A stretch of DNA of 59,591 bases from a virus. The notes below the pieces were generated by a model. It was not told the origin of the DNA. It worked only from the letters and a program-made list of their open reading frames with translations, and made no database searches. The number at the start of each line of letters is the position of its first letter. The first letter of the stretch is position 1. The stretch lies in the IMG/VR virus record IMGVR_UViG_3300028823_000151; one strand, 5' to 3'. The position numbers and the translations under genes are program-made. This document shows positions 145 to 59,591 of this stretch, in pieces.

Positions 145-797
145 GTTCTTCTCATTTGTAAAAGCAATGGAAACAATCTCATCTCTATGTCGTATACATT
201 CATTAAGTTTTGATCTTCCAATAATCTTTTTTGTTTTTGAAAAACTTTGTAAGTAAGTAAAGCATCTTGTGCACCATAAGGTGCAACAACTAATGCTGGC
301 AAAGTATACAATATTTTATTGTCAACCCTACCTTTAGGAAACTCTATACCGTTATGAATCATATACTCCTTAATATCCCTATAGTTTTTTCCAATACCTA
401 AATATTCTTCACCCAAGGAATCTAAACTGTAAGTTAATTTATATTCATCAATAAGTGGTTCAGCTATTTGGACATCATTATATACACCATTAACAGGTAT
501 TCCTTCATAATTTATTAACCAATCTAAGTCGTATAATCCATTGGCAAATATTTTATGATTGTTAGAACTTAACTGATCAATAATATATTTACGATTTAAA
601 TTAGCTTTTTCAGGAGTCACATCAAAATGATTTATTGGATAATATTCTGAAAGTTCTCCATTAGAAAAGGAAACTCCAGTAACGTATCCATCTTTACGAT
701 AGACACCTGGACCCTTTTCTTTTAGTAAAGGGTCCTTTGATTCTATATCAACTGCTATTTCTTTATCACCTTTATATTGATAATAGCTTAACTTCAT
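1..797 (-). CDS. DNA polymerase I family (PolA-type), N-terminal 3'-5' exonuclease part; same gene as 58388..59591, joined across the circular junction (about 618 aa in total)
   Basis: My minus-strand translation from the ATG at 797 (AAGGAGGA upstream) reads MKLSYYQYKGDKEIAVDIESKDPLLKEKGPGVYRKDGYVTGVSFSNGEL... DIE is the ExoI DxE motif. The stretch I translated by hand (797 down to about 650) has no stop; I did not verify the rest of the frame down to position 1 codon by codon. The ATG at 104 equals the ATG at 59551 and is in frame (797-104=693). The ORF is missing from the track because it runs off the window edge. Confidence 0.85.
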   Translation of the reverse strand, partial: MKLSYYQYKGDKEIAVDIESKDPLLKEKGPGVYRKDGYVTGVSFSNGELSEYYPINHFDVTPEKANLNRKYIIDQLSSNNHKIFANGLYDLDWLINYEGIPVNGVYNDVQIAEPLIDEYKLTYSLDSLGEEYLGIGKNYRDIKEYMIHNGIEFPKGRVDNKILYTLPALVVAPYGAQDALLTYKVFQKQKRLLEDQNLMNVYDIEMRLFPLLLQMRRTGVRVDKEKLYKTGMQLDDLRYDLQDELNQIAGRELNANSGKQLEKLF

Positions 798-1255
798 CTT
801 AGAAATTCCTCCTTTATATCAAATATTTCTAAAAGGTTTTTTACAGTATCAACACCTATTTTTCCTTCCCATTTTGTATAGTCATTGTGATACTCTATAT
901 CGTAGATCACTACAGGAATTTTAAATAGATGCATATACTTTAAACATTGATCACAAGGACCATGAGTAACTAACATAATAAAGTCACTTAGATCAGTATT
1001 GTATCCAAGATTTTTAAAGCAATCGAATATCGCTCTTGGTTCAGCATGAATAGCCCAACATCCATCTTGTTGCCATTCATACTCTTTTCGTACACATTTT
1101 TCACATGGAACTTCAGCCCCTCCATGACCTACTCCAACAATCTCACCTGTATTTTTATACATTAAGACTGCACCTACTTTTTTCTTAAGACATTGGGATG
1201 TTTCTGCCATAACCTTTGCAAGCTCTACAGCGTCTAAAAACTTTTCCTTATTCAT
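794..1255 (-). CDS. deoxycytidylate (dCMP)/cytidine deaminase family zinc enzyme
   Basis: Carries HAEPRAI (HAE catalytic/zinc motif), HGPCDQC (PCxxC) and CLKKKVGAV. GGAGGGG lies upstream of the ATG. The gene overlaps the hydroxymethylase gene by 8 nt. Confidence 0.85.
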   Translation of the reverse strand: MNKEKFLDAVELAKVMAETSQCLKKKVGAVLMYKNTGEIVGVGHGGAEVPCEKCVRKEYEWQQDGCWAIHAEPRAIFDCFKNLGYNTDLSDFIMLVTHGPCDQCLKYMHLFKIPVVIYDIEYHNDYTKWEGKIGVDTVKNLLEIFDIKEEFLR

Positions 1256-2072
1256 ATTCCCCTCCTATGTATCCTATGTGTTTAAATAAAGTTTGACTAT
1301 ATAATTCTAATAAATAGTCATCACACCCCTTTTCAAATTCAGAACGTTTAAATTCAGAGATACCTATTAAATTATAAACTTTAGATAACTTTTCTTTTAT
1401 AAGAAGTAAATTTCTTTCGTACATGTGAAGACTACCAGTCTGATGATTATAGTTTCCTAGTTTTATGTCATAGTTTGAACGTAACTCCTTAAGCATCTTT
1501 AATTGTATTAAACAAAAGAAAGGAACATCATAAGGTAAACCATACCAAATATCTGAAGACCTCATCTTAACAAATAAATGTAGTTTCCCTCCTCTTATAA
1601 AAAATTGTAAAAACATTGTACACGGATTGTCATTACTAGGATGAGCATTTTCTCTGTTATATATTGTCATAACAGCTTTCTTGCTGTCCTTATTTTGTAA
1701 CAACATTTCCCTTGCATATTCAAACTGAGTGTAGTTGTGATGGTTTCTATCGTGTAACAATAGTTTTCCATAGTTACTAAAGATTGTTCTTCCATCATCT
1801 GAAACCTTGTTCCAGAATTTTGAATGCTTAGAAATTTCTTTTAGAAAAGGGCTTCCTGAAGTATAGAATTCTAATTCCCCTTTTAAATAATCTATAGACA
1901 TATCCCTACAAGTTGCGAAACATTTTTTAGGCTTTGTCAAAGTGAAACTATAGTCTAACAGTTCAAAAACCTTTTCTCCTTTTCTGTTTAATATACTATA
2001 GTCAAAATCATTGTACACTTTATCCATTAAGCAACAATAAATTTTATTAAAATCATTCTGAACTATCTTCAT
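1248..2072 (-). CDS. deoxypyrimidine-monophosphate hydroxymethylase, thymidylate-synthase superfamily, T4 gp42-like
   Basis: GELEFYTSGS (cf. T4 gp42 RELEWYKSKS), NPCTMFLQFF (catalytic Cys), KMRSSDIWYGLPYD and TGSLHMYERN (cf. VGSLHVYSRH). The ATG at 2072 with GGAGGGG 6 nt upstream is preferred over the TTG at 2075 used by the track. Confidence 0.8.
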   Translation of the reverse strand: MKIVQNDFNKIYCCLMDKVYNDFDYSILNRKGEKVFELLDYSFTLTKPKKCFATCRDMSIDYLKGELEFYTSGSPFLKEISKHSKFWNKVSDDGRTIFSNYGKLLLHDRNHHNYTQFEYAREMLLQNKDSKKAVMTIYNRENAHPSNDNPCTMFLQFFIRGGKLHLFVKMRSSDIWYGLPYDVPFFCLIQLKMLKELRSNYDIKLGNYNHQTGSLHMYERNLLLIKEKLSKVYNLIGISEFKRSEFEKGCDDYLLELYSQTLFKHIGYIGGEYE

Positions 2073-2141
2073 CAACTTCCCCTCCTGTTGTAATAAACAT
2101 TATACATAAGTTTATAATAGACTTGATTAAAGTCGAAATTA

Positions 2142-2759
2142 TCATTCATTACTTTTTTCCTCCCTTATGTCTGGGGTGACTGGTTTTCCTTCATATTTAG
2201 GCTTCTCTGTAGGATACAGTCCATGGATTCCAAGACGACCTTCCCAAAATTCTCTGCCCTTATTAAATTTTTTCTCACACTCTATAATTCTACTGCTTAA
2301 AATTTGAGCGTATCTTTCTATTGGTCCATAGATATATCTATTTCCTAAAGTATGTTCTTCAAAACAATATAAGTATGCTTCCATTTCATCAGACAATTTA
2401 AAAAGAAGTAATTGATCTTCCGTTAAGATATTTTCTATACCTTTGTCTGACCAAGGTTTAAGTTCTTCAGGAAGTGTTTCCTCTTCAAGTACACTCCAAG
2501 CTTCTTTTGTCTTTTCATTTTTGTTTCGTATCAGCCTATTCATATCGCCTGTAAAGGTCTCTGCAAAATCATGATTCATAAGTATAAATAAAATGTCCTC
2601 ATTTATTTCTACTCCAAACTCTTTACAAAACAAATAGAACAACGTGGCAGTTCCGTGTCCATGTTCGCATAGATTTTGTGGTCTTAAAACAAATTCCATT
2701 TCAAATCTTTTGATTGAAATCATTGTTTTTCTTTTGTCTAAATAATTTTCGATATTCAT
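2142..2759 (-). CDS. HD-domain 5'-deoxynucleotidase, YfbR-like
   Basis: RPQNLCEHGHG...LMNHDFAETFTGD...KLSDEMEAYLYCFEE parallels E. coli YfbR (ENVSEHS...YHDASEVLTGD...KQADALCAYLKCLEE). AAGGAG SD present. Confidence 0.75.
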   Translation of the reverse strand: MNIENYLDKRKTMISIKRFEMEFVLRPQNLCEHGHGTATLFYLFCKEFGVEINEDILFILMNHDFAETFTGDMNRLIRNKNEKTKEAWSVLEEETLPEELKPWSDKGIENILTEDQLLLFKLSDEMEAYLYCFEEHTLGNRYIYGPIERYAQILSSRIIECEKKFNKGREFWEGRLGIHGLYPTEKPKYEGKPVTPDIREEKSNE

Positions 2760-2761
2760 AT

Positions 2762-3829
2762 TTACTCCTTTATTAGTTTTGATATATGTGGTTTTAGTTT
2801 ACCTATTTTGGAAAACTCAATTAAATTATTGTACAAAGGTTCTTTAGGATGTAACTTCTGTATTTTTTCAACTGTATGTATACAGTCGCCATAAAAATAT
2901 TCCTTACCCCAGTAAGGATATAAACCTACACGAAAACTTCTTTGACTACATAGAACACATGAAATAAGATCTTCTCTATATCCTTCCGCAAGTAGTGCTC
3001 TAACCTTTTGAAACTTTTCACCTTGCCAAATATCAAGTACATGTTCTTCGTTAACGTTACCTAAGTCTATACACTTAGCACCATTACTACAACAAATATC
3101 TACGATTCCATCATAACCTATTGTCATATATTTGTAGGGTTCTTTACATACTTTTCTTAATGGAAAGTCCTGTAATTTTGAACCTGTATATTTTTCCCAT
3201 TGGGAAAGTTTTAGGTTGCCTCCCCAATTGTGCATACGTCTTGTAACGTTACCATCACAATTAAATATGTCACTTTCGTCTGTTAAGATAATTGTTTTAT
3301 GTTTATAACCTTTATAAGAAAAAGCATTAACGTTGTCTTTATAATAGTCATAAACTTGTATTCCTTTTATTTCTAAAATTCTTTTGTTTCTTTCTAGTTC
3401 ACCTATAAAGAAATCCCTTTGTGCCTTACTATAAAAATCTGTTTGAGCATAATTAAGACCCTTGTCAAACAAGTCTATAAATTCAAATATGTTTTTACTT
3501 TTATAGACTTCAGTATTTGTTATTATAAGTATCTGTGCCTTTGGCATTTTTTCTCTTATAATACCTATGTACTCTCCTACATTCTTATGTAGAGTTGGTT
3601 CACCTTGTAAAGAGATTGATATACGTTTTGTTTTTTCTGTCAGGTTATCTACAATATTCAACAAAGTTTCTTTTGTTATTCTACCAGTAGAAGCTTGTGA
3701 CCTTCCACAGAAAGAACAATTAAGGTTACATCCTCTTACAAATTCTATACGAACCTGATTTGGTTCTGTAAAAACAAGTAGATTATGTTTCCTTAATTCT
3801 GCGACATGCTCCTTATCATACATTTCCAT
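2762..3829 (-). CDS. radical SAM enzyme with C-terminal SPASM/twitch-like Cys-rich domain
   Basis: VRGCNLNCSFCG is the CX3CX2C radical-SAM cluster motif. The C-terminal VCKEP...GIVDICCSNGAKCIDLGNV...ISCVLCSQ resembles an auxiliary Fe-S (SPASM) domain. Confidence 0.85.
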   Translation of the reverse strand: MEMYDKEHVAELRKHNLLVFTEPNQVRIEFVRGCNLNCSFCGRSQASTGRITKETLLNIVDNLTEKTKRISISLQGEPTLHKNVGEYIGIIREKMPKAQILIITNTEVYKSKNIFEFIDLFDKGLNYAQTDFYSKAQRDFFIGELERNKRILEIKGIQVYDYYKDNVNAFSYKGYKHKTIILTDESDIFNCDGNVTRRMHNWGGNLKLSQWEKYTGSKLQDFPLRKVCKEPYKYMTIGYDGIVDICCSNGAKCIDLGNVNEEHVLDIWQGEKFQKVRALLAEGYREDLISCVLCSQRSFRVGLYPYWGKEYFYGDCIHTVEKIQKLHPKEPLYNNLIEFSKIGKLKPHISKLIKE

Positions 3830-3831
3830 AG

Positions 3832-4689
3832 TTACCTTCCGTTATATTTTCTAAACTTTACTTTTTGATTTCCAGTGTAAGCATTAAGATACTTAACATA
3901 CTTTTGATATTCACACAACCAATGTTCAACTTCCCTTAAGGTTATTTTTTCTTCTGGAAAGTATATTCTAAATTCTTCTTCCATTACTTCCCTTACAACT
4001 ACTGCATCAGGCAACCAATCTCTTTGTTTTATTCTTACAGTAGGATAACCAAACCTTATAAGGCTCATTCCTTGTCTTGCCCCAGGACCCATGTTTGCAT
4101 AGGTATTTTTATCGGTTGGATTAAAGTAGTCTGTGTATTCAAAATCACAAGCATATTCGTATGCCATAAAACCACCAACACCAGGAAATTGTTTTAGAAA
4201 ATCTACAAGCCTTTCCATAGAGTTTTCTTTAATAACTTCTTTTATATAATCGTTAGCTTTTAAACTTTCAATTAAAAAGAATGGAGCTTCATACGTTTCT
4301 AACCAACCACCAGGTACTCTTGGATTTCTTATAAAGCATGAAGAAAATAATTTTTCCCCTTCTTCTTTTCTACTACTAAGAAAATCTTTTACTTCAGATA
4401 AATTGTCCAGTTTACAGTTTTCTTTTATTCTACAGAATGTAGAATATGTAGAAATAAACCTGTATAAAATTATTAAATCCCATCTTTCAAAGGGAAGTAT
4501 GTTTTCTATTAACCACTTTGTACACTTATCGTATTGACGAAACACATTACAGAAAAAGAAATTTTGGAATATCTCATCCTCAGTCCAAGGAGCTGGCATT
4601 CCTTCTTCCTTTAATTTGTAAATCTTATGTCGTTCAATAGCCGTATCTAAGAAGTGATTAAAGTGTTCAGAATTAAAATGGTTATTCAT
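3832..4689 (-). CDS. putative DNA base hypermodification protein, alpha-glutamyl/putrescinyl-thymine pyrophosphorylase (aGPT-Pplase)-like
   Basis: The N-terminal ERHKIYKLKEEGMPAPWTEDEIFQNFFFCNVFRQYDKCTKWLIENI matches my recollection of the conserved start of this family (..R..I...R..G...PWT.D.IL....FCN.YR..DR.....). This rests on memory only and was not searched. Confidence 0.5.
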   Translation of the reverse strand: MNNHFNSEHFNHFLDTAIERHKIYKLKEEGMPAPWTEDEIFQNFFFCNVFRQYDKCTKWLIENILPFERWDLIILYRFISTYSTFCRIKENCKLDNLSEVKDFLSSRKEEGEKLFSSCFIRNPRVPGGWLETYEAPFFLIESLKANDYIKEVIKENSMERLVDFLKQFPGVGGFMAYEYACDFEYTDYFNPTDKNTYANMGPGARQGMSLIRFGYPTVRIKQRDWLPDAVVVREVMEEEFRIYFPEEKITLREVEHWLCEYQKYVKYLNAYTGNQKVKFRKYNGR

Positions 4690-4706
4690 ATATTTCTCCT
4701 ATCATC

Positions 4707-5624
4707 TTATTCATATCCTTTTAAAAATGTATTAGTTCCAAGTATAATTTTCATACCTTCTTCAGCTGGTATATAAGGTTCCTCGCCTTCAGGTAAAAAT
4801 CTTTTCCAGTCTATTGTACAATCTAATCTTTCCTCATCCCATAGTCCGTTGTTCTTTATTTTAAGATCAACATACCCAGGAAATTCTTTACATAATTGTT
4901 TAGCGGATTCAGATTGTGCTTCTACTGTTCTTGTTTCTGAACATCCACCTTTGTATCCTGTTCCAGGGTCACCACAGCACCAACGAGCATTGCTTAAAGA
5001 CTTGTAACCTTTTGACAATAATTTTAATTGTACATAACGATCACTCATAAAAGGAACAGGCATTTCATTAATCTTTATACCTTCCTTTATTAAAGTTGGA
5101 ACATGGTAACAAACGAATCTTATAATTGGAATATTCTTAGGAAACATGTATTTAATTCCTTGGCTTCCAAGCTTCAATGGCAGTCCAACTATTGGGTACT
5201 CCTCATTACAAAGTTGTATACTTTCATAAAGTATTTTATTAAAGCAATCGTTTGCAATAAAGTCTTCATGCCTTGAAGTATATTTTGAAGATAGATTTTC
5301 ATCTCTGAAATACAAGTTTATATCATCGTCAATTATAAATAGGTATTCAGTAAAATTTTCCTTTGCTATATCAAAACACTTTTGTCTTTTATCTGCGATT
5401 GTAGAATCATCAGGTACAACAAAGACAGGTGCATAATTATCTACAGCTTTTCTATAGTCACTTGCTTCACTTTCTCGAACTATAATTTCGTATAGATAAT
5501 TAAAGCTAAAAGGGTCTATATGTTTCCATATACCTATTCTTTTTTCTATAAGATGTATCCTATTTCTAGATGGAATACTTATAGAATAATTTAAGTTTGT
5601 TAACTTATTATAAATTTCACTCAT
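4707..5624 (-). CDS. GT-A-fold glycosyltransferase-like protein (possible DNA-base glycosyl/other group transferase)
   Basis: YSISIPSRNR near the N-terminus and LFIIDDDINL (DxD) are GT-A hallmarks. They resemble phage IPSYKR-type/TET-associated glycosyltransferases. The assignment is weak. Confidence 0.4.
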   Translation of the reverse strand: MSEIYNKLTNLNYSISIPSRNRIHLIEKRIGIWKHIDPFSFNYLYEIIVRESEASDYRKAVDNYAPVFVVPDDSTIADKRQKCFDIAKENFTEYLFIIDDDINLYFRDENLSSKYTSRHEDFIANDCFNKILYESIQLCNEEYPIVGLPLKLGSQGIKYMFPKNIPIIRFVCYHVPTLIKEGIKINEMPVPFMSDRYVQLKLLSKGYKSLSNARWCCGDPGTGYKGGCSETRTVEAQSESAKQLCKEFPGYVDLKIKNNGLWDEERLDCTIDWKRFLPEGEEPYIPAEEGMKIILGTNTFLKGYE

Positions 5625-7038
5625 TCATAGACCTCCTAAAAATACTTTCGTAACCGAATTGTGAATTAGAATGTACAATATGTAAATTCTTTTTTGCTCT
5701 TGTTAAAGCTACATATAAACATCTTAATTCAGAATCCAAGGCTTCTACATTTCGTTCAAGGTTATTGTCAATAGTTTTAGTTACATCTAACAACAAAACA
5801 ACATTGTCAGCTTCACCACCCTTTACTCCATGTATTGTATTCACTTCACAATTTGTTTTAGTAACATCAACTTTGTTTTTAAACAAGTCTTTAAAATAAG
5901 TTTTCTCGTTTATATCAAAGTTCAGAGAATAAAACCACGGATCTTTAATGTTTATAATGTCTCTTAAATAAGGTTTAAGTGATAGGTCAGTATAAATTTG
6001 TTCAGGATCATACTTCCTATGTTTTTCATAAATCCTTACAGCGTTATACTTTTTCATATCAACACTATACCTGTGCTTATATTGAAAAGTCATTCCTAAC
6101 TCCCGTAACCTTTTTCCATATATAGATAAGTGATAATTATTTCTGGCTAGAAAGTAGTAAGATTCCTCATTGTTTATAGGTATCTCATCTACTTTATTAT
6201 AAAAATAAATTTCACCACCTTCTTGTACAGGGTCAAAGATTTTATCTACACGATTAGATATTTGTTTTGAAAATAGTTTAGAAAAATTTAGTATCTTTTG
6301 TCTAAGTCTGTACGATTTGTCCAACACAATGTTTTCACTATGTTTTGAAAGATTTAAAAAATGTTTTATATCAGAGCCTGACCATTCATATATTGCTTGG
6401 TCATCATCCCCTGCTATATAAACTTTGTTACAATTTCTAAAAGCTACTTCACAAAATTTCCATTGCAAGGATGTAAGGTCTTGTGCTTCATCAATTATAG
6501 CTACTTGAACAGGTAACGGTTTATCTTTTTTAATAAACTCTACAATTAAATCATCAAAATCCTTTACTCCCATTTCAGTTTTAAATCTTTCATAGTTATT
6601 GGAAACAAAATTTACTTTCTTTACATCTAAATCCTCCAACAATATTTCAGCGGTCCTTGGATTATTTTTCTTTAGAGAAACATAAAACAAATATTTATCA
6701 TCGTTATTGATAAAGTCCTCTGTGTAGTAACCTACAAAGTTCATACCCATTGCCCTTGAAAACTCTTTATAATTTTTCTTGGAAATCATTTCATACCTTG
6801 ACATTCCAAGGTCTCTAAAAGCTAATGAATGAATAGTTCTAAAATAAGGTAAGTCAGAATCTTTATAACCAAACTTTTCAGTAGCTCTATCTCTTCCTTC
6901 ATAACTTCCTTTCTTTGTAAAAGAAACAAAGGCAATTTTATCTGAATCATAATCATCCAAAATGTCAGAAAGTAAGTTCAATAAGTACGTTGTCTTTCCA
7001 CACCCTGGAGCTCCAAAGATCATTGTTGTTTCTTGCAT
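5617..7038 (-). CDS. superfamily 1 (UvrD/Rep-like) DNA helicase
   Basis: FGAPGCGKTT (Walker A), AIIDEAQD (motif II), AGDDDQAIYEW (III), TIHGVKGGEADNV (V) and LYVALTRAKKNLHIV (VI). The ATG at 7038 immediately follows the stop of the upstream gene; the track start at 7056 is a TTG. Confidence 0.85.
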   Translation of the reverse strand: MQETTMIFGAPGCGKTTYLLNLLSDILDDYDSDKIAFVSFTKKGSYEGRDRATEKFGYKDSDLPYFRTIHSLAFRDLGMSRYEMISKKNYKEFSRAMGMNFVGYYTEDFINNDDKYLFYVSLKKNNPRTAEILLEDLDVKKVNFVSNNYERFKTEMGVKDFDDLIVEFIKKDKPLPVQVAIIDEAQDLTSLQWKFCEVAFRNCNKVYIAGDDDQAIYEWSGSDIKHFLNLSKHSENIVLDKSYRLRQKILNFSKLFSKQISNRVDKIFDPVQEGGEIYFYNKVDEIPINNEESYYFLARNNYHLSIYGKRLRELGMTFQYKHRYSVDMKKYNAVRIYEKHRKYDPEQIYTDLSLKPYLRDIINIKDPWFYSLNFDINEKTYFKDLFKNKVDVTKTNCEVNTIHGVKGGEADNVVLLLDVTKTIDNNLERNVEALDSELRCLYVALTRAKKNLHIVHSNSQFGYESIFRRSMNE

Positions 7039-7039
7039 A

Positions 7040-7498
7040 TTACCTGTCCAGTCCAAACAAAGGTAGAGGATCCCTTAACATAACTCCACACTTTAAAGGG
7101 GATATAAAATCATTTGTACTATTATAATAAAAAGTTTTACCTCTTCTATCTATTAAAAGGTAAGTCACTAAAGATTTATCTTTGCTAAACTTAATTCCAT
7201 AAAGTCTTATTGGATATCTCACACTATAAGAATTAAATTTTCTAGGTCTATTCTTTTTGTGAAAACCTTTCTTATGATAATCTAAAAACAAATATTGGTA
7301 TGTTAGATACTCATAACTATTTCCAAGATACTTAACTCCGCTTGGATTATATTCAAACTGTTCACAAGTATCGTACTTAAACATTTGTCCTACACGTTCT
7401 GAAAGTTCATCAAATGAAGGGATAAAAACTTCACCTTTAATAGATACAGTAAACAAAAGAACTATAGTTATAATTGTAAAAAATATTATTTTCTTCAT
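7040..7498 (-). CDS. secreted or membrane-anchored hypothetical protein
   Basis: N-terminal MKKIIFFTIITIVLLFTVSIKG looks like a signal/anchor sequence. The gene is packed tightly between the primase and helicase genes. Confidence 0.55.
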   Translation of the reverse strand: MKKIIFFTIITIVLLFTVSIKGEVFIPSFDELSERVGQMFKYDTCEQFEYNPSGVKYLGNSYEYLTYQYLFLDYHKKGFHKKNRPRKFNSYSVRYPIRLYGIKFSKDKSLVTYLLIDRRGKTFYYNSTNDFISPLKCGVMLRDPLPLFGLDR

Positions 7499-7509
7499 AA
7501 TTTTCTCCT

Positions 7510-9129
7510 TTAAAAATCTTCGATAAAGTCTGAAAAGTCTGGTTCAAAACTTTTTTCTACAGGTTCAAAGTAATTAAGTAATTCCTTCTTAACTGTAACC
7601 ACTCTAAGTTTTTTCCTTTTATCTTTTCCATTAGATTCTGTATTTACATCCTTATTCATTTCCGCTTTAAAGTCGTCTTTCAATAAACGATATACTTCTT
7701 GTTTATCAAAATTAAGCCCACGCTTTTTATCATTAACGTACACAACTAGATCCCTCATACGGAACCAATATTCTCCGCTAGAAGAATCAAAAAACACACG
7801 ACCATCTTCAATTTGTCTTCTGTTTTCAGCCGGGACTCTTCCAGTAATAAACTCGAATACACTAAGCTTCAATAATATTATTGGAGAAGTATCATCAGCT
7901 TCATCTATAGTTTTTACGTCAACTTCTTTTAGAGCTTGGTTAACCTTTTTAAACCATTCGTGTTGCTTTAACTTTGTAGGAATTTCATAAAGTTCCCTCA
8001 TACACAATTTAATGAAAGTGTCCTGTTTCAATAATTCATCCTCACTTTTAAAGACTAACCTTGTATATTTTTCTTGATCCTGTCTTCTAACTTCCCATTC
8101 ATAATAAGGTTGTTTAGATTTATATTGTGTTAGAACTCCACACTCTATAGTTGAAAAGTATCCGTCATCTTTTCCAACACCAAATTCCCTTTTACGACAT
8201 TCGTTCTTATTACAATAATCTGAACATGGAAAGTCATTACATTTATACTCGTAATCTCTTTTTCGTAAAGATGAAACAATTGTTTTTTCGACCTCCTTTT
8301 CTGATAATGGATATTTTAAATTTCCATTTGCCTCTAATAACTGTTGTTCAAAAAAGTCTTCATCCTTTTTCTTTAAATAAACACCTAACGAAAACAGAAA
8401 AATATTTCTACCTGAATTAAAATCCAACGGATCTAAAATTGTTATTGACTGCAAACAAGGTGGTGCGTCATTATAATCTAGATCATGTAGAAATTCTCTC
8501 ATATCCTTTACGGTTGTCATCTTTCCTTTTATATAACTAAGAGCTTCAGGTAAAGACAATTCTTGTCCTTCTTTTATTGCGACTTGTTTTGTCTCCTTAT
8601 GATTGTAGTAAGGTAAGTTAATTGCATTACCTATTTCTCCATCCCTTAGTTTAGTTTGCTTAGGAAAAATTTCAACAGTCCTATTTGTTTTGTTTTTAAC
8701 GTAAGTATCTATTGCTAATATAGAAGCCATACTTTTCATTATCTTTACAGCTTCTTTAGGACTCTGAGCTTGTTTGAAAAAAGAATACAAGTGCAATCCT
8801 CCACTTTTACTTTTGAAAGGAACCAATGGAAATTTATGTTTGTCTATAGCTTCAATAAAAGTTATCATGTCCTCATTATATATGTCAATATCTATAGCTG
8901 AGAAAAAACATTTACTGTCTTCAGATATGGGGATTATTCCCAGTCCTTCTTTACCTTCTAAATGTTTTTTATAATCTGTTATAGTTATTAACTTATCTTT
9001 TACAGTACGATACTCCCCTTGAAGCTTTCCATTTACCTCGTCTTTTCCGTACACTAATTTTAAATAATTGTTTTTAGAACCGGAAAATAATTTTTTAAAT
9101 TCCTCAACATCATGTGAATTTAGTGACAT
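7510..9129 (-). CDS. archaeo-eukaryotic primase (AEP/prim-pol) superfamily DNA primase with Cys-rich C-terminal region
   Basis: FFSAIDIDIY (DxD), SKSGGLHLYSFF (sGxGxH) and EIFPKQ. A later segment, CNDFPCSDYCNKNEC, looks like a zinc-binding region. Confidence 0.7.
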   Translation of the reverse strand: MSLNSHDVEEFKKLFSGSKNNYLKLVYGKDEVNGKLQGEYRTVKDKLITITDYKKHLEGKEGLGIIPISEDSKCFFSAIDIDIYNEDMITFIEAIDKHKFPLVPFKSKSGGLHLYSFFKQAQSPKEAVKIMKSMASILAIDTYVKNKTNRTVEIFPKQTKLRDGEIGNAINLPYYNHKETKQVAIKEGQELSLPEALSYIKGKMTTVKDMREFLHDLDYNDAPPCLQSITILDPLDFNSGRNIFLFSLGVYLKKKDEDFFEQQLLEANGNLKYPLSEKEVEKTIVSSLRKRDYEYKCNDFPCSDYCNKNECRKREFGVGKDDGYFSTIECGVLTQYKSKQPYYEWEVRRQDQEKYTRLVFKSEDELLKQDTFIKLCMRELYEIPTKLKQHEWFKKVNQALKEVDVKTIDEADDTSPIILLKLSVFEFITGRVPAENRRQIEDGRVFFDSSSGEYWFRMRDLVVYVNDKKRGLNFDKQEVYRLLKDDFKAEMNKDVNTESNGKDKRKKLRVVTVKKELLNYFEPVEKSFEPDFSDFIEDF

Positions 9130-11000: not shown

Positions 11001-11708
11001 TCAACTTTCCGTGTTCAGTTCAATATTTTTATTTAAGTTAAACCTACTAAACAGATCCACTGGAAATAAAAAGTAAGAAAATTTACTTCTAGGATTCTGC
11101 TTAAACTTGTTTGAACTTTTTATTTTATCCATAAACAATTCAAAATCCATTATGTTTTGTATCACTTGACATCCAGCGGAATACCTACCTATCTTTGTAA
11201 CTTCCTTAATATCAGAAGCACGATGTATATTGATACCAAAATATCCACGCTGTACAATATCCTCATCGTCCCTTCTAAAATTATTATTTCCGTCTCTCCA
11301 TATTGTTACTGGTGCACCCCACTGTGCCAATGCTTCATAACCCCTATGTATTCCAACCATGTAGGCGTTACGGTGATAACCGTAACAAAGATGTGCAACA
11401 CCTTTTTTATCGCCAGCAGCTCCACCTACGAAAGTCCAATAAGCTCCAGGATCACATGTTCCATTAAAAAGAAAAACTAATTTATCAATGACGACACCTA
11501 TATAGTCATTAAATCCATCGGCCCTTTGTCCAGCTTCATTTCTTATACCAAATATATTTACCTCTTCCCATGGAGCTCCATTAGATAAATATAATTGTTT
11601 GATGTGTTTGTAAAAATATGTTTCACGATTTCCTATACTTCCATCCTTATTAAAGACAAAATTGTTTTTACTAGACAAACTCATAAGTCGATTCTTAACT
11701 TGTTTCAT
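11001..11708 (-). CDS. putative peptidoglycan-active enzyme with L,D-transpeptidase (YkuD/Tlde1)-like catalytic motif
   Basis: INIHRASDIKEVTKIGRYSAGCQV fits H-x14-S-x-G-C-[IV]-like YkuD spacing. AAGGAG SD present. The functional assignment is tentative. Confidence 0.4.
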   Translation of the reverse strand: MKQVKNRLMSLSSKNNFVFNKDGSIGNRETYFYKHIKQLYLSNGAPWEEVNIFGIRNEAGQRADGFNDYIGVVIDKLVFLFNGTCDPGAYWTFVGGAAGDKKGVAHLCYGYHRNAYMVGIHRGYEALAQWGAPVTIWRDGNNNFRRDDEDIVQRGYFGINIHRASDIKEVTKIGRYSAGCQVIQNIMDFELFMDKIKSSNKFKQNPRSKFSYFLFPVDLFSRFNLNKNIELNTES

Positions 11709-12710: not shown

Positions 12711-14264
12711 CTATTTAGGTAAATTTACTTCATTCCTTGAGTCTGATGTGTCAAATAAATATCTGTATTCAACACCAACAGCAAAGGCAATATTCTTTTG
12801 TATGTACCTTTTGTTACCAGCAGCGTTTCGCTTAGGAAAATAATGTAAGTAACCACCTGAACCTGTTAATGATAAACATTTAAAAGGTGTTATCTTAATT
12901 CCACCTGAAATTGAAACGCATGGAATCTGTGCATCTAAATCACTATAAGTCTTTTTATTTGCACCTCCATAATAATAAGCTGTACCAGCTCCAAACTCTA
13001 GCCAGTCAAAAGGTTTTAACTTTAAACCAAATTGTCCGTCCCAGGCATCACTATAATTGTCATTATATCCCAGTATCTCACCACCTTCATCAGAATAAGA
13101 ATCAGCGAGCTTAACAAAATAATAATGACCTTGTATACCTACTGCAAGCCAACCAGTTGGACTCCATTCAATTCCAAGCCCAACCAGAGAAGGTAAATTG
13201 TAACTTCTACGTCTTCCATCCACAAACATACCTGCAAAACTTTTTCCATCCTTAACACTTTCTTTCCAAGACAGAACTGTTTGAGATTCGTAACGCAAAC
13301 CAATATTTAAACTTTCTACTGGCCTCCAGTGTAAACCTATAATTGCCCCTATTCCATGGGCTTCTTTACTTGCGTCTAATTCCACTAACTCAGTAGTAAT
13401 ATTTGCAGGGTTATTTACTTCATCTGCAATTTGATCAGCAACCATACATCCATCACTAACAGCAACTGGAGTTATTCGATACTTTGTCCACCCTGAATAC
13501 TCGTTCTTAGCGTATATGTATCTTATACTGAAAGAAGTAGCGAAAACTTTTTCAATAATTTGATAAGCTGTACCTATTGTCCCAGCTAAATACATACTGC
13601 TACCTTTAACTTCACCACCTAACCAATCAACTTTAGTGTTTGAAAAATCTAAATGCTGCTCAACATACTTCATTGAATTAAAGTCAATGGATGGATCATT
13701 CGGATTAAAAAAGTCAGATCCAATAATTGATCTTATTGTAGGCGCAAGCCAATATTCAGTAACAGACATGTGTGCTTTTTCAGCTAACCCTTTGTGTGCC
13801 TGTTCAAAAATAATATCCTGTGCTTGATCTGAGACCTTTGGACAATTTTCATCCAACATAGGAATACCATCTTTGTAATGTCTTGTACCACCACCAGCAG
13901 GAATTGTGAACGATGCAAACAATGACCAACGCCCTTTCTTAAAAACAAAGTAGGCATTTGGTATTGCTGGAACAGGTTCATTAGAACCGTAAGTCTTACC
14001 CTTGTATTCCATTCCACTGTAAGATACTGTGATACTTTGTACACTTACATCAAAGTGAATTCCATCTTTCATAAATGCTGTGCCTGCTGGATTAAAATTT
14101 GCTATGTCCGCCCCTTCTGTAGAACCTATCCTTATAGGATTCATTAAGTAGTTAGCAGACTGGTTGGGCAAATAATCAATATTTGCCATTGCACGTTTCG
14201 TATAAATAAGTTGAGTTAATGTTGCCATAACTAAAGACAACAAAATAAATCGTAATGTAACCAT
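12711..14264 (-). CDS. outer-membrane beta-barrel protein, FadL/TodX (OMPP1) family-like
   Basis: The ATG at 14264 has a GGGGGG SD. Signal peptide MVTLRFILLSLVMATLTQLIYTKRAMA is followed by NIDY. The N-terminal NFNPAGTAF matches the NPAG hatch motif of FadL. The rest shows long alternating beta-strand patterns with Gly/aromatic girdles and a terminal strand AFAVGVEYRY. Confidence 0.65.
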   Translation of the reverse strand: MVTLRFILLSLVMATLTQLIYTKRAMANIDYLPNQSANYLMNPIRIGSTEGADIANFNPAGTAFMKDGIHFDVSVQSITVSYSGMEYKGKTYGSNEPVPAIPNAYFVFKKGRWSLFASFTIPAGGGTRHYKDGIPMLDENCPKVSDQAQDIIFEQAHKGLAEKAHMSVTEYWLAPTIRSIIGSDFFNPNDPSIDFNSMKYVEQHLDFSNTKVDWLGGEVKGSSMYLAGTIGTAYQIIEKVFATSFSIRYIYAKNEYSGWTKYRITPVAVSDGCMVADQIADEVNNPANITTELVELDASKEAHGIGAIIGLHWRPVESLNIGLRYESQTVLSWKESVKDGKSFAGMFVDGRRRSYNLPSLVGLGIEWSPTGWLAVGIQGHYYFVKLADSYSDEGGEILGYNDNYSDAWDGQFGLKLKPFDWLEFGAGTAYYYGGANKKTYSDLDAQIPCVSISGGIKITPFKCLSLTGSGGYLHYFPKRNAAGNKRYIQKNIAFAVGVEYRYLFDTSDSRNEVNLPK

Positions 14265-14281
14265 TGGAACCCCCCAATTTG

Positions 14282-14464
14282 TTATTTTCTCCAAACACGA
14301 ATTCCAATTCCAAAAACGATCCATCTAAAATAAACATACTTAGAATCTTCTACTCCGATGTGTTTTGCAATTGAAATTGTTGGAACAATGAATACTTCTT
14401 TGCACAGCTCATCATCCGTATACAAATTCCAAAACACAATCTTACTTTTTAGAAAGTGTTTCAT
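14282..14464 (-). CDS. hypothetical small protein
   Basis: Called only from packing and its 4-nt overlap with the upstream ORF. Confidence 0.35.
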   Translation of the reverse strand: MKHFLKSKIVFWNLYTDDELCKEVFIVPTISIAKHIGVEDSKYVYFRWIVFGIGIRVWRK

Positions 14465-58409: not shown

Positions 58410-59591
58410 TCCTTTAGATCCCCCCAGTTTTCACCAATTTCTGCATCGACTATTACAGGAACCCTTAGACGTATACTTGTTTCCATTATGTGTTTCAATT
58501 CTTCGCCTGCATCCCTACCTATTTCAGTTCTTGGCATACTACAGTCCATTTCATCATGGACTGTTAAGTGTGGAATTAGAACGTCGAATACTCCAGCTTC
58601 ATAAGCATCAACCATAGACTTTTTCATAATGTCTGCTGCAGAACCTTGTATAAGTCTATTAAACATTATATATTCTTTTCCAGACTGTGGCATACGAGCA
58701 CGACGATTTAATATTGTTCTTATGTATCCAAACCGTTTTGCCTTTGATGCAACTCTCCTTCCTGTCTCTTTAACGAATGGAACTTTTGAATGATACATTT
58801 CATAAACAGCCTTAGCACCTTCAAGTTCCCAATTATATTTTCTAGACATAGATGTAATTCCCATCCCATAAGCAGCTCCAAAGTTTAGTGTCTTAATAAC
58901 CTTACGGTCATCAATACCTGTCATTTCCATAAGTTCAGCATGGTAGTCTACGTTTGGATCGTTAATATATCTTTGTCGTATAACCTCTGAACCTTCTCCA
59001 GAAGCGTAATGTGCTATAAGTCGATATTCAATTTGTGACCAGTCCATCTTTAACCAATCACAACCTTCCTCTGGAACAAATAGTTTTCTTACAACTTGAC
59101 CGGACAATACTTCACTATCATGTTGTATATATTCGTTTTCATTTTTTCCAGAAACTTGCTGTAAATTTGGATTTGATGAAGAGAACCTTCCACTTACTGT
59201 TCCATAATCATCACTTCTTAATTGATTAAAGCTACAATGTAGTCTATCACCTACCATTAATTCTGGATAAGGATGTATAAACATATTTAATAAAGTGGAA
59301 ATATGTCTAATTTCTAATATTTTTTTAGCTAGATCATGATCCATTTTACTTAATGTTTCCTTATCAAACTTTGGATTTCCTTTAAGTTGTCCTTTCATTA
59401 TCATTAACTCAGTAGGTTCATTGTATTCTACAGGATGTCCCATAGACAAAAACAATTTTTCTAACTGTTTTCCACTGTTCGCATTAAGTTCTCTGCCAGC
59501 TATTTGATTTAATTCATCTTGTAGATCGTACCTTAAATCATCAAGTTGCATTCCTGTTTTGTACAGCTTTTCTTTATCAACCCTTACACCT
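58388..59591 (-). CDS. DNA polymerase I family (PolA-type), polymerase domain; continues upstream into 1..797 across the circular junction
   Basis: KMDWSQIEYRLIAHY (motif A), RKVIKTLNFGAAYGMG (motif B) and HLTVHDEMD (motif C). The frame is open beyond the listed Met at 59551 up to the window end. Confidence 0.9.
   Translation of the reverse strand, partial: GVRVDKEKLYKTGMQLDDLRYDLQDELNQIAGRELNANSGKQLEKLFLSMGHPVEYNEPTELMIMKGQLKGNPKFDKETLSKMDHDLAKKILEIRHISTLLNMFIHPYPELMVGDRLHCSFNQLRSDDYGTVSGRFSSSNPNLQQVSGKNENEYIQHDSEVLSGQVVRKLFVPEEGCDWLKMDWSQIEYRLIAHYASGEGSEVIRQRYINDPNVDYHAELMEMTGIDDRKVIKTLNFGAAYGMGITSMSRKYNWELEGAKAVYEMYHSKVPFVKETGRRVASKAKRFGYIRTILNRRARMPQSGKEYIMFNRLIQGSAADIMKKSMVDAYEAGVFDVLIPHLTVHDEMDCSMPRTEIGRDAGEELKHIMETSIRLRVPVIVDAEIGENWGDLKEWKIEYV
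59448..59591. repeat. terminal overlap, right copy (identical to 1..144)
   Basis: As for the left copy. The repeat lies inside the polymerase ORF, so it most likely reflects circular assembly or a permuted genome. Confidence 0.95.

Follow-up and report, generated by a model that had tools for sequence, protein, structure and literature searches.

A viral Twitch-type radical SAM protein coupled to DNA glycosyltransferases: a candidate sugar-tailoring enzyme of phage DNA hypermodification

The protein considered here, rSAM, is a radical S-adenosylmethionine (SAM) protein encoded by the virus record IMGVR_UViG_3300028823_000151 (IMG/VR), a stretch of 59,591 nucleotides (nt) which was analysed at its full length and is called the window throughout. 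Going by its sequence, rSAM is probably, if by a modest balance of the evidence, a Twitch-subclass tailoring enzyme of phage DNA hypermodification which works with a DNA-base glycosyltransferase (GT) on a DNA-linked sugar. By analogy with its relatives it would tailor the sugar on glycosylated 5-hydroxymethylcytosine (5-hmC) or 5-hydroxymethyluracil (5-hmU), most likely by oxidation. Sequence comparison and a predicted structure assign to it its enzyme class, a two-cluster architecture and a BtrN-like fold, and its gene is coupled to, and at some loci fused with, that of a DNA GT. The gene and its two cluster-binding elements are located as follows:

2762..3829, minus strand: rSAM gene (355 residues, ATG start), from the list of open reading frames (ORFs), with Pfam Radical_SAM and SPASM matches above their cut-offs
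3707..3730, minus strand: CX3CX2C motif CNLNCSFC at residues 34-41 (C34, C38, C41), the site of the SAM-cleaving [4Fe-4S] cluster, read directly from the sequence
2948..3148, minus strand: Twitch-type auxiliary-cluster domain at residues 228-294 (C228-x12-G241-x4-C246-C247 ... C291-x2-C294), Pfam SPASM 228-291

Pfam recognises the radical SAM core in residues 28-129 (Radical_SAM, PF04055; 41.9 bits against a cut-off of 29.5) and SPASM in residues 228-291 (44.6 bits, cut-off 21.5). In an alignment of 70 distinct homologues the cysteines C34, C38, C41, C228, C246, C247, C291 and C294 are conserved in at least 99% of the sequences, and the CX3CX2C motif named in an initial annotation of this DNA is thereby confirmed. 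Further conserved residues of this alignment are E29, N35, G76-E77-P78, which constitutes the SAM-binding 'GGE'-like motif, N105, D131, Y133, W268, R277 and R285. The same annotation had described the C-terminus as SPASM/twitch-like, of which the cysteine-rich character and the Twitch type hold but not a full seven-cysteine SPASM domain, only five cysteines being conserved there. The SPASM signature (CX9-15GX4C ... CX2CX5CX3C ... C) is missing from the family alignment, which contains no conserved cysteine beyond C294, and the match to the Pfam SPASM model is explained by that model covering what SPASM and Twitch have in common. rSAM has the CX9-15GX4C hairpin and the distal CX2C that define a Twitch domain, with four ligands for one cluster, and is matched in part by the NCBIfam model N_Twi_rSAM (E 5e-10). 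On this alignment the C-terminal domain is of the Twitch type, like that of BtrN, and its cysteines suffice for a single auxiliary cluster. C247 is an additional invariant cysteine beside the ligand C246, at a position where BtrN has a phenylalanine; by analogy with radical SAM epimerases, one possibility is that it could serve as a hydrogen donor.

The initial annotation had recommended looking for the closest characterised radical SAM subfamily, which is by sequence as well as by fold that of BtrN, a radical-SAM alcohol dehydrogenase. BtrN is the closest solved structure by sequence (4M7T/4M7S; E 6e-14), where the core and the cysteine-rich C-terminus align separately. An AlphaFold2 model of rSAM built from a 16-sequence alignment has a predicted local distance difference test (pLDDT) score of 86.3 and a predicted template modelling (pTM) score of 0.87, and it matches the partial TIM-barrel cores of radical SAM structures. 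A Foldseek search of the Protein Data Bank (PDB) with this model places BtrN far ahead (E 2e-14, template modelling (TM) score 0.79-0.80 normalised to BtrN, 22% identity); the next matches are, in order, the peptide crosslinker SuiB, DesII, SpeY (a Twitch dehydrogenase), anSMEcpe and EpeE.

Only about 11 close homologues of rSAM (39-62% identity, all metagenomic) are present in a protein database clustered at 90%. A pattern scan of IMG/VR returned 253 relatives at 25-47% identity, and 80 loci were kept; HMMER, run exhaustively on 1.84 billion representatives, gave 508 clusters (50% identity) at E <= 1e-30, and a word-indexed search starting from one family member gave at least 952 clusters at 90% identity. 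No member was found among the cultured phages of GenBank, where a megablast search with the cassette returned nothing, and tblastn with the window rSAM, with member L082 and with the family consensus produced only matches to the N-terminal core, one unannotated faecal contig and a partial match in a Synechococcus phage. GTDB yielded no relatives with an alignment of the close clade and 15 loci with an alignment of the broad family. Judged from these searches, rSAM belongs to a large, uncharacterised and almost entirely viral family. An intein (PF14890) splits one member (P0237, 672 residues), lying between its radical SAM core and its Twitch domain.

On the contigs of close homologues (41-62% identity) the gene order GT (one or two copies) - HMUDK_hel - rSAM - HD nucleotidase - thymidylate synthase (TS)-like enzyme - dCMP deaminase - Pol A is conserved. 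For the wider family, ORFs were called in all loci, iterative profiles were built from the window proteins and the remaining proteins were clustered; all counts refer to the 71 loci with non-identical rSAMs, and TAGT denotes the GT-A family to which the GT of the window belongs:

TAGT directly adjacent or fused to rSAM: 34 of 71 loci
TAGT within four genes of rSAM: 48 of 71 loci
TAGT or a putative GT-B family (c9 or c25) within four genes of rSAM: 58 of 71 loci
HMUDK_hel near rSAM: 31 of 71 loci
TS-like gene near rSAM: 36 of 71 loci
HD gene near rSAM: 32 of 71 loci
TET/JBP dioxygenase near rSAM: 7 of 71 loci
rSAM of spore photoproduct lyase (SPL) type resembling M6 gp53, near the Twitch rSAM: 8 of 71 loci

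The initial annotation had regarded rSAM as almost certainly part of one pathway with its immediate neighbours, a reading upheld by the conserved gene order at 41-62% identity and by co-occurrence with GT, HMUDK_hel, TS-like and HD genes well beyond this lineage. The coupling is closest with the GT, to which rSAM is occasionally fused. The fusion protein P0030 of locus L029 (579 residues), which was assembled on three contigs from three sources, consists of TAGT (1-197), Radical_SAM (277-384) and SPASM (467-533), and a second fusion, P0236 (588 residues), has the same architecture at 37% identity to P0030. In P0225 (709 residues) a c25-like N-terminal region is fused to rSAM. Fusions of this kind are classical Rosetta-stone evidence and imply that GT and rSAM act in the same process. 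No Pfam model matches the c9 and c25 families (for example L026:4944-5981 and L075:9659-11092); they are mutually homologous (hhalign 95%) and are by sequence putative GT-B enzymes. The rSAM family is basic (median isoelectric point (pI) 8.7, net charge +7), as are the GT (8.9) and HMUDK_hel (8.6) families, compared with 6.2 for TS-like and 6.1 for HD proteins; this charge, shared with the DNA-acting neighbours, weakly corroborates DNA as the substrate. In the cassettes of some close relatives a second TAGT paralogue is found (L003:6241-7119, L005:1997-2854), which suggests a disaccharide or an alternative sugar there, while the window has a single GT.

In the window the minus strand reads UvrD-like helicase - TAGT - HMUDK_hel - rSAM - HD - TS-like - dCMP deaminase, and the cassette genes other than rSAM are:

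4707..5624, minus strand: TAGT/JGT-like GT-A DNA glycosyltransferase (PF20691, 32.1 bits, cut-off 27.5; phrog_842, E 2e-25)
3832..4689, minus strand: HMUDK_hel/aGPT-Pplase-like helical protein (PF18723, E 2e-45)
2142..2759, minus strand: HD-domain YfbR-like 5'-deoxynucleotidase (PF12917, E 4e-17; YfbR 2paq, E 4e-7; phrog_7076 dATP triphosphohydrolase, E 1e-8)
1248..2075, minus strand: TS-fold pyrimidine hydroxymethylase with the cytosine-type Asp (best PDB match T4 dCMP hydroxymethylase, E 4e-20)
794..1255, minus strand: dCMP deaminase (PF00383, E 2e-13; phrog_174, E 3e-22)

The gene described in the initial annotation as a GT-A-like transferase is indeed a TAGT, above the PF20691 cut-off and with a conserved DDD motif (R22, R80, D99-D100-D101 and D195 are the conserved residues of the window GT), and it is predicted to be the functional partner of rSAM. 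The 2-nt spacing reported on both sides of the rSAM gene is exact, given an HD gene that ends at 2759 and an upstream gene that begins at 3832. Shine-Dalgarno-like sequences (GGAAGG and AGGAG) of the rSAM region lie within the 3' end of each preceding gene. All genes from 794 to 9129 are on the minus strand, and the helicase and the six cassette genes (794-7056) overlap or are separated by gaps of at most 66 nt, the dCMP deaminase and hydroxymethylase genes sharing an 8-nt overlap. The HD gene pairs with a TS-like gene in most loci and also in the M6-like phage PAE1. Pfam searches of the window were run on the early-region ORFs, the structural-arm ORFs lying outside that scan. Among these ORFs a Walker-A scan and Pfam revealed no P-loop 5-hmU DNA kinase, and Pfam revealed no aGPT-Pplase2, no pyridoxal phosphate (PLP) enzyme and no nucleoside diphosphate (NDP)-sugar enzyme. 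The canonical kinase/Pplase2 amino-acid-transfer route of thymidine hypermodification is not encoded in this phage.

The base to which a sugar would be attached can be predicted from the TS-fold enzyme. Its match to T4 dCMP hydroxymethylase compares with about 1e-12 for true thymidylate synthases, and the Asp of its GLPYDVPFF motif aligns with Asp179 of T4 and Asn177 of E. coli, in a column that is confirmed by the D179N mutant entries of the PDB. The residue at T4 position 179 switches between cytosine and uracil specificity: T4 D179N prefers dUMP and TS N229D methylates dCMP. The M6-like dUMP hydroxymethylase PAE1 Orf53 has Asn at this specificity position. From the Asp at the specificity position the pre-replicative product is predicted to be 5-hydroxymethyl-dCMP, and the enzyme appears to be a dCMP and not a dUMP hydroxymethylase. 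In the window this Asp-type enzyme shares a cluster with HMUDK_hel, which is otherwise known from thymidine-hypermodifying phages. The dCMP deaminase gene near rSAM is restricted to the clade of the window, and its product could either supply dUMP for the host TS or convert 5-hydroxymethyl-dCMP into 5-hydroxymethyl-dUMP.

Other members of the family take other routes to a hydroxymethyl-pyrimidine. Among 49 TS-like neighbours 38 are of the Asn type (M6-like 'GANAVHF', dUMP) and 11 of the Asp type, and at further loci a TET/JBP dioxygenase (PF12851) takes the place of the hydroxymethylase, accompanied by a C5-methylase in the single locus of this kind that was annotated. The conversion of 5-methylcytosine (5mC) to 5-hmC and then to glycosyl-5-hmC is an established logic of such clusters (PMC8256090). 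A prophage of Actinomadura rayongensis DSM 102126 (NZ_WUTW01000008.1, about 151-168 kb; L098, 7905-16554) has the layout rSAM - C5-cytosine methylase - ParB-like - c9 - TET/JBP - ... - TerL, which is this logic with rSAM added. As its host is a cultured strain, the prophage is a possible experimental system for the rSAM family. What stays constant across the base routes is a hydroxymethyl-pyrimidine source and a GT, and since rSAM is paired with a GT whatever the route, it would address the common sugar and not a particular base.

The protein encoded immediately upstream of rSAM, HMUDK_hel, is homologous to PhiW-14 gp72, ViI gp160 and PAE1 Orf49, the last of which is taken to be the equivalent of M6 gp55. 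Its Pfam name stems from a fusion to a kinase in SP10; the window protein itself has neither a Walker A motif nor a kinase domain. Iyer et al. reportedly defined both TAGT and aGPT-Pplase in 2013. The label "Pplase-like" which the initial annotation had given to this neighbour is acceptable in the sense of an aGPT-Pplase-like clade, with the restriction that the Pfam match is to HMUDK_hel. M6 gp55 is dispensable in vitro (PMC8989533). The invariant features of the family are a GPG hairpin and a Cys-Glu..Lys motif near the C-terminus (C259, E260 and K263 in window numbering). In Pplase2 the catalytic cysteine (Cys247 of PaMx11 gp46) attacks C6 and expels the 5-methylene leaving group (PMC11472151; PMC13458397). 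The HMUDK_hel family profile found no match among solved structures, and an hhalign comparison with PAE1 Pplase2 aligned only the 'E..LC' segment of the catalytic-Cys region, at a level that is not significant (E 0.035, probability 1.5%). These sequence features hint that the 'helical domain' is itself an enzyme, perhaps a Cys-dependent one, and if the cysteine is catalytic, HMUDK_hel may carry out a substitution at the 5-methylene. HMUDK_hel, which is related to the aGPT-Pplases, would be an accessory partner in the pathway.

As we infer the substrate (a DNA-linked sugar), the order of the steps and the outcome of the reaction, the pathway would begin with the Asp-type TS-fold hydroxymethylase making 5-hydroxymethyl-dCMP, which the overlapping dCMP deaminase might optionally turn into 5-hydroxymethyl-dUMP, and the HD nucleotidase would clear the competing canonical nucleotide. 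The phage Pol A would put the hydroxymethyl pyrimidine into DNA, where the TAGT/JGT-like GT-A enzyme would glycosylate the 5-CH2OH group. rSAM would then reductively cleave SAM, and the 5'-deoxyadenosyl radical would remove a hydrogen at a carbinol carbon of the sugar now attached. With the electron passed to the auxiliary cluster, a keto-sugar would be formed, if BtrN, SpeY and DesII are a guide. Alternative outcomes would be an epimerised sugar, possibly by way of C247, or a deoxygenated or dehydrated sugar in the manner of AprD4 or DesII.

The initial annotation had envisaged C-C or C-H chemistry on an appended sugar, on an amino-acid moiety or on the hydroxymethyl carbon itself. C-H chemistry on an appended sugar is favoured by the GT-rSAM fusions, by the BtrN-like fold and by the link to GTs whatever the base route, and the amino-acid moiety is disfavoured because the window contains no aGPT-Pplase2, P-loop 5-hmU DNA kinase or PLP enzyme. 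Several observations weigh against a sugar-tailoring role on DNA. The BtrN fold, at 22% identity, does not fix the reaction, as Twitch and SPASM enzymes also epimerise, dehydrate and form C-C or C-S bonds. GT-rSAM fusions are rare (2-3 clusters among about 500), the GT-B signals of c9 and c25 are weak (Glyco_transf_4, E 0.004; MshA/GlgA N-terminal motif, E 0.3-0.6), and at 13 of the 71 loci, some of them on truncated contigs, a GT was not detected nearby. At two loci without a detected GT, L069 and L070, rSAM directly adjoins a TET/JBP dioxygenase. No recurrent downstream enzyme such as an aminotransferase, a reductase or the product of an NDP-sugar gene was found near rSAM across the family loci, and the GT of the window is acidic (pI 5.5), which weakens the argument from charge.

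The fusions and the adjacency are equally compatible with action on an NDP-sugar donor, since they suit donor channelling as well as tailoring after transfer, and it is accordingly conceivable, although on balance unlikely, that rSAM acts before transfer by turning an NDP-sugar of the host into an unusual (keto, deoxy or epimerised) donor which the adjacent GT would attach. Of the closest structural relatives, BtrN, SpeY and DesII use small-molecule sugars or cyclitols, and GTs in phage clusters are known to be accompanied by epimerases acting at the level of the nucleotide sugar (10.1101/2023.12.21.572611). Against this donor route, no other NDP-sugar genes (nucleotidyltransferase, 4,6-dehydratase, aminotransferase) recur nearby, and the charge of the rSAM family is nearer to that of its DNA-acting than of its nucleotide-acting neighbours, which is weak evidence. 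It is distinctly improbable that rSAM acts on the base's own hydroxymethyl carbon, oxidising 5-CH2OH to 5-CHO or forming a C-C bond in place of the missing 5-hmU DNA kinase, with HMUDK_hel completing the substitution. Radical SAM dehydrogenases do oxidise primary as well as secondary alcohols, anSME (serine to formylglycine) is among the fold matches, a hydroxymethyl-pyrimidine source (TS-like or TET) is present in 43 of the 71 loci, and in L069 and L070 rSAM lies directly beside TET/JBP, with no GT detected. The window, moreover, is without a P-loop kinase yet retains a Pplase-like protein with an invariant cysteine, whose motif is the only segment to align with the catalytic-Cys region described for Pplase2 (PMC11472151). 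However, that alignment is not significant, HMUDK_hel is absent at more than half of the loci, the hydroxyl in question is the acceptor that the GT needs, and rSAM is most tightly linked, and at times fused, to the GT and not to the hydroxymethyl source.

Two further explanations are both very improbable. One is a viperin-like or conflict-related enzyme which modifies nucleotides, for example into chain terminators, independently of DNA modification. PADLOC pVip models do match family members (E 1e-5 to 1e-6), as does the NCBIfam model viperin_w_prok (E 4e-5), and a survey reports 'annotated viperins (pVip)' in clusters with GT and ThyS/5mYOX genes (10.1101/2023.12.21.572611). The matches, however, are confined to the first ~90 positions of the profiles and to the N-terminal ~90 residues of the generic radical SAM core, the score against NF038283 is 22.9 bits where 180 are required, rSAM carries an auxiliary-cluster domain of the Twitch type, the fold search ranks viperins far below BtrN, and a fusion to a GT would be unexpected for a viperin. 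Because the pVip matches are restricted to the N-terminal core, the 'annotated viperins' of the survey are plausibly mislabelled members of the rSAM family. The other explanation, for which we see as little prospect, is a housekeeping or peptide-modifying radical SAM enzyme: an anaerobic ribonucleotide reductase activase, QueE, or a maturase of peptides that are made by ribosomes and modified after translation (RiPPs) or of a phage protein. Weak matches to NrdG2, QueE, several peptide maturases and phrog_626 and the presence of SuiB and EpeE among the fold matches speak for it, and against it stand scores far under the curated cut-offs, the absence of a conserved precursor-peptide gene adjoining rSAM and a DNA-modification context that is consistent throughout the loci.

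No curated NCBIfam model comes near its cut-off for rSAM, and the individual identities fall accordingly. NrdG is rejected at 31 bits against 131 for TIGR02495 (NrdG2) and 20 against 126 for TIGR02491; NrdG has no Twitch domain, and its partner NrdD is absent among the early-region ORFs scanned. QueE (TIGR03963) scores 29 bits against 260, with no deazaguanine or queuosine genes among the same ORFs, MoaA scores ~22 bits against a cut-off above 230, and anSME and the peptide maturases are far under theirs. A housekeeping radical SAM family with a matching partner gene, which the initial annotation had named as the finding that would speak against it, was looked for and is not what the NrdG, QueE, viperin and MoaA scores indicate. 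rSAM is not an orthologue of BtrN either, given 22% identity, a phage DNA-modification setting and no aminotransferase nearby. Nor is it M6 gp53, whose PAE1 orthologue gives a BLASTP E of 0.57 and falls into a separate cluster (c20), and whose kinase/Pplase2/PLP context is missing in the window. Dihydroxypentyluracil, as in SP-15, is unsupported as a product: 'radical SAM' is absent in a term search of the SP-15 genome paper, and phage-database searches gave no SP-15 match.

With regard to the window as a whole, an exact direct terminal repeat of 144 nt (1-144 and 59448-59591) indicates a circularly closed, complete phage genome of ~59.4 kb, and the Pol A gene spans the contig ends (58388-59551 and about 1-790). 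A promoter scan of the window found promoter-like sites at chance level, and in a terminator scan the sole minus-strand terminator-like site falls within conserved codons. Early-region ORFs without a Pfam match are:

12711-14324, minus strand: 537 residues, containing a Walker-A-like GMEYKGKT
11001-11708, minus strand: 235 residues
57560-58237, minus strand: 225 residues

Whether phage DNA withstands restriction enzymes and CRISPR nucleases is determined by its hypermodifications, which also yield new enzymes for use in DNA chemistry and in epigenetic sequencing. The enzymes known to tailor glycosylated 5-hmC and 5-hmU are glycosyltransferases, epimerases and phosphotransferases. A viral family of Twitch radical SAM proteins tied to DNA GTs would imply a chemically undescribed class of sugar-modified DNA bases, and radical SAM enzymology would gain a new kind of substrate. 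We put forward tentatively, and with some doubt, that the family contains the first radical SAM enzyme to act directly on a base-attached glycan in polymeric DNA, giving a keto-, deoxy-, epimerised or carbon-cross-linked adduct that would be widespread in environmental and gut phages. In a bolder variant of this proposal, glycosylation followed by radical oxidation would replace phosphorylation in kinase-less clusters as the means of activating 5-CH2-O, and the Cys-bearing HMUDK_hel would displace the oxidised sugar with another nucleophile. Published surveys may have filed genes of this family under defence ('pVip') rather than under modification. Full-text literature searches returned no description of a Twitch or SPASM radical SAM enzyme coupled to DNA glycosylation; an earlier computational mention (Iyer et al. 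2013) is possible.

Among characterised proteins BtrN, the 2-deoxy-scyllo-inosamine dehydrogenase of the butirosin pathway, is most similar to rSAM in build, with a radical SAM core, a Twitch domain and a single auxiliary [4Fe-4S] cluster, and its Twitch-domain cysteines align with C228, C246, C291 and C294. rSAM is ~100 residues longer, owing to an insertion around residues 160-225 (of which 186-197 are poorly modelled) and a C-terminal extension, and differs by the extra invariant C247. In contrast to BtrN it is phage-encoded beside DNA GTs, with no aminoglycoside cluster and no partner aminotransferase, and its substrate is presumably a DNA-linked or nucleotide-linked sugar. SpeY, DesII and anSME have a Twitch or SPASM architecture in common with rSAM, although as fold matches (E 1e-5 to 1e-4) they are much weaker than BtrN, and in anSME the SPASM domain is complete, with two auxiliary clusters. 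None of the three is associated with DNA, but they oxidise or otherwise transform alcohols on sugars, cyclitols or serine, which is the type of chemistry proposed for rSAM.

To our knowledge, M6 gp53 is the only radical SAM enzyme that has been shown to install a DNA modification. This phage radical SAM enzyme, a glycinyl-thymine isomerase, tailors a group that is carried in DNA by a base derived from a 5-hydroxymethyl-pyrimidine, the same role as is proposed for rSAM, and its gene likewise neighbours those of a TS-like hydroxymethylase, an HD nucleotidase, Pol A and an HMUDK_hel/Pplase-like protein. It is SPL-like and has been reported as the first enzyme of the radical SAM class with a part in installing a DNA modification (PMC8989533). 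The thymidine-route isomerase mentioned in the initial annotation therefore exists, but it belongs to an unrelated, SPL-like subfamily and is not kin of rSAM: M6 gp53 has no Twitch or SPASM domain, its similarity to rSAM is limited to the Cys motif, and it acts on an amino-acid adduct installed by a kinase and Pplase2, both of which are missing in the window. An SPL-type M6-gp53-like gene lies a few genes from the Twitch rSAM and a GT at L010, L015, L017, L020, L021, L022, L028, L052, L058, L093, L095 and L096. Some clusters thus code for two radical SAM enzymes that are unrelated, and in the loci holding both no aGPT-Pplase2 could be recognised.

The phage clusters for 5-hmC and 5-hmU glycosylation, in which a TS-like enzyme, or a C5-methyltransferase with TET/5mYOX, is combined with a GT-A or GT-B enzyme (PMC8256090; 10.1101/2023.12.21.572611), follow the same cluster logic and use the same GT family as the rSAM loci, among which the layout of methyltransferase, TET and GT is also found. 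The GT-A family glycosylates 5-hmC in DNA according to a preprint (10.1101/2023.12.21.572611), and the tailoring genes reported in that survey of virus-encoded DNA GTs are epimerases, secondary GTs and phosphotransferases. A radical SAM partner is not described in those cluster studies, the word 'radical' being absent from the main text of the survey (10.1101/2023.12.21.572611). What is new here, and is supported by the gene coupling, is that the known glycosylation of hydroxymethyl-pyrimidines in phages would be combined with a radical SAM tailoring step.

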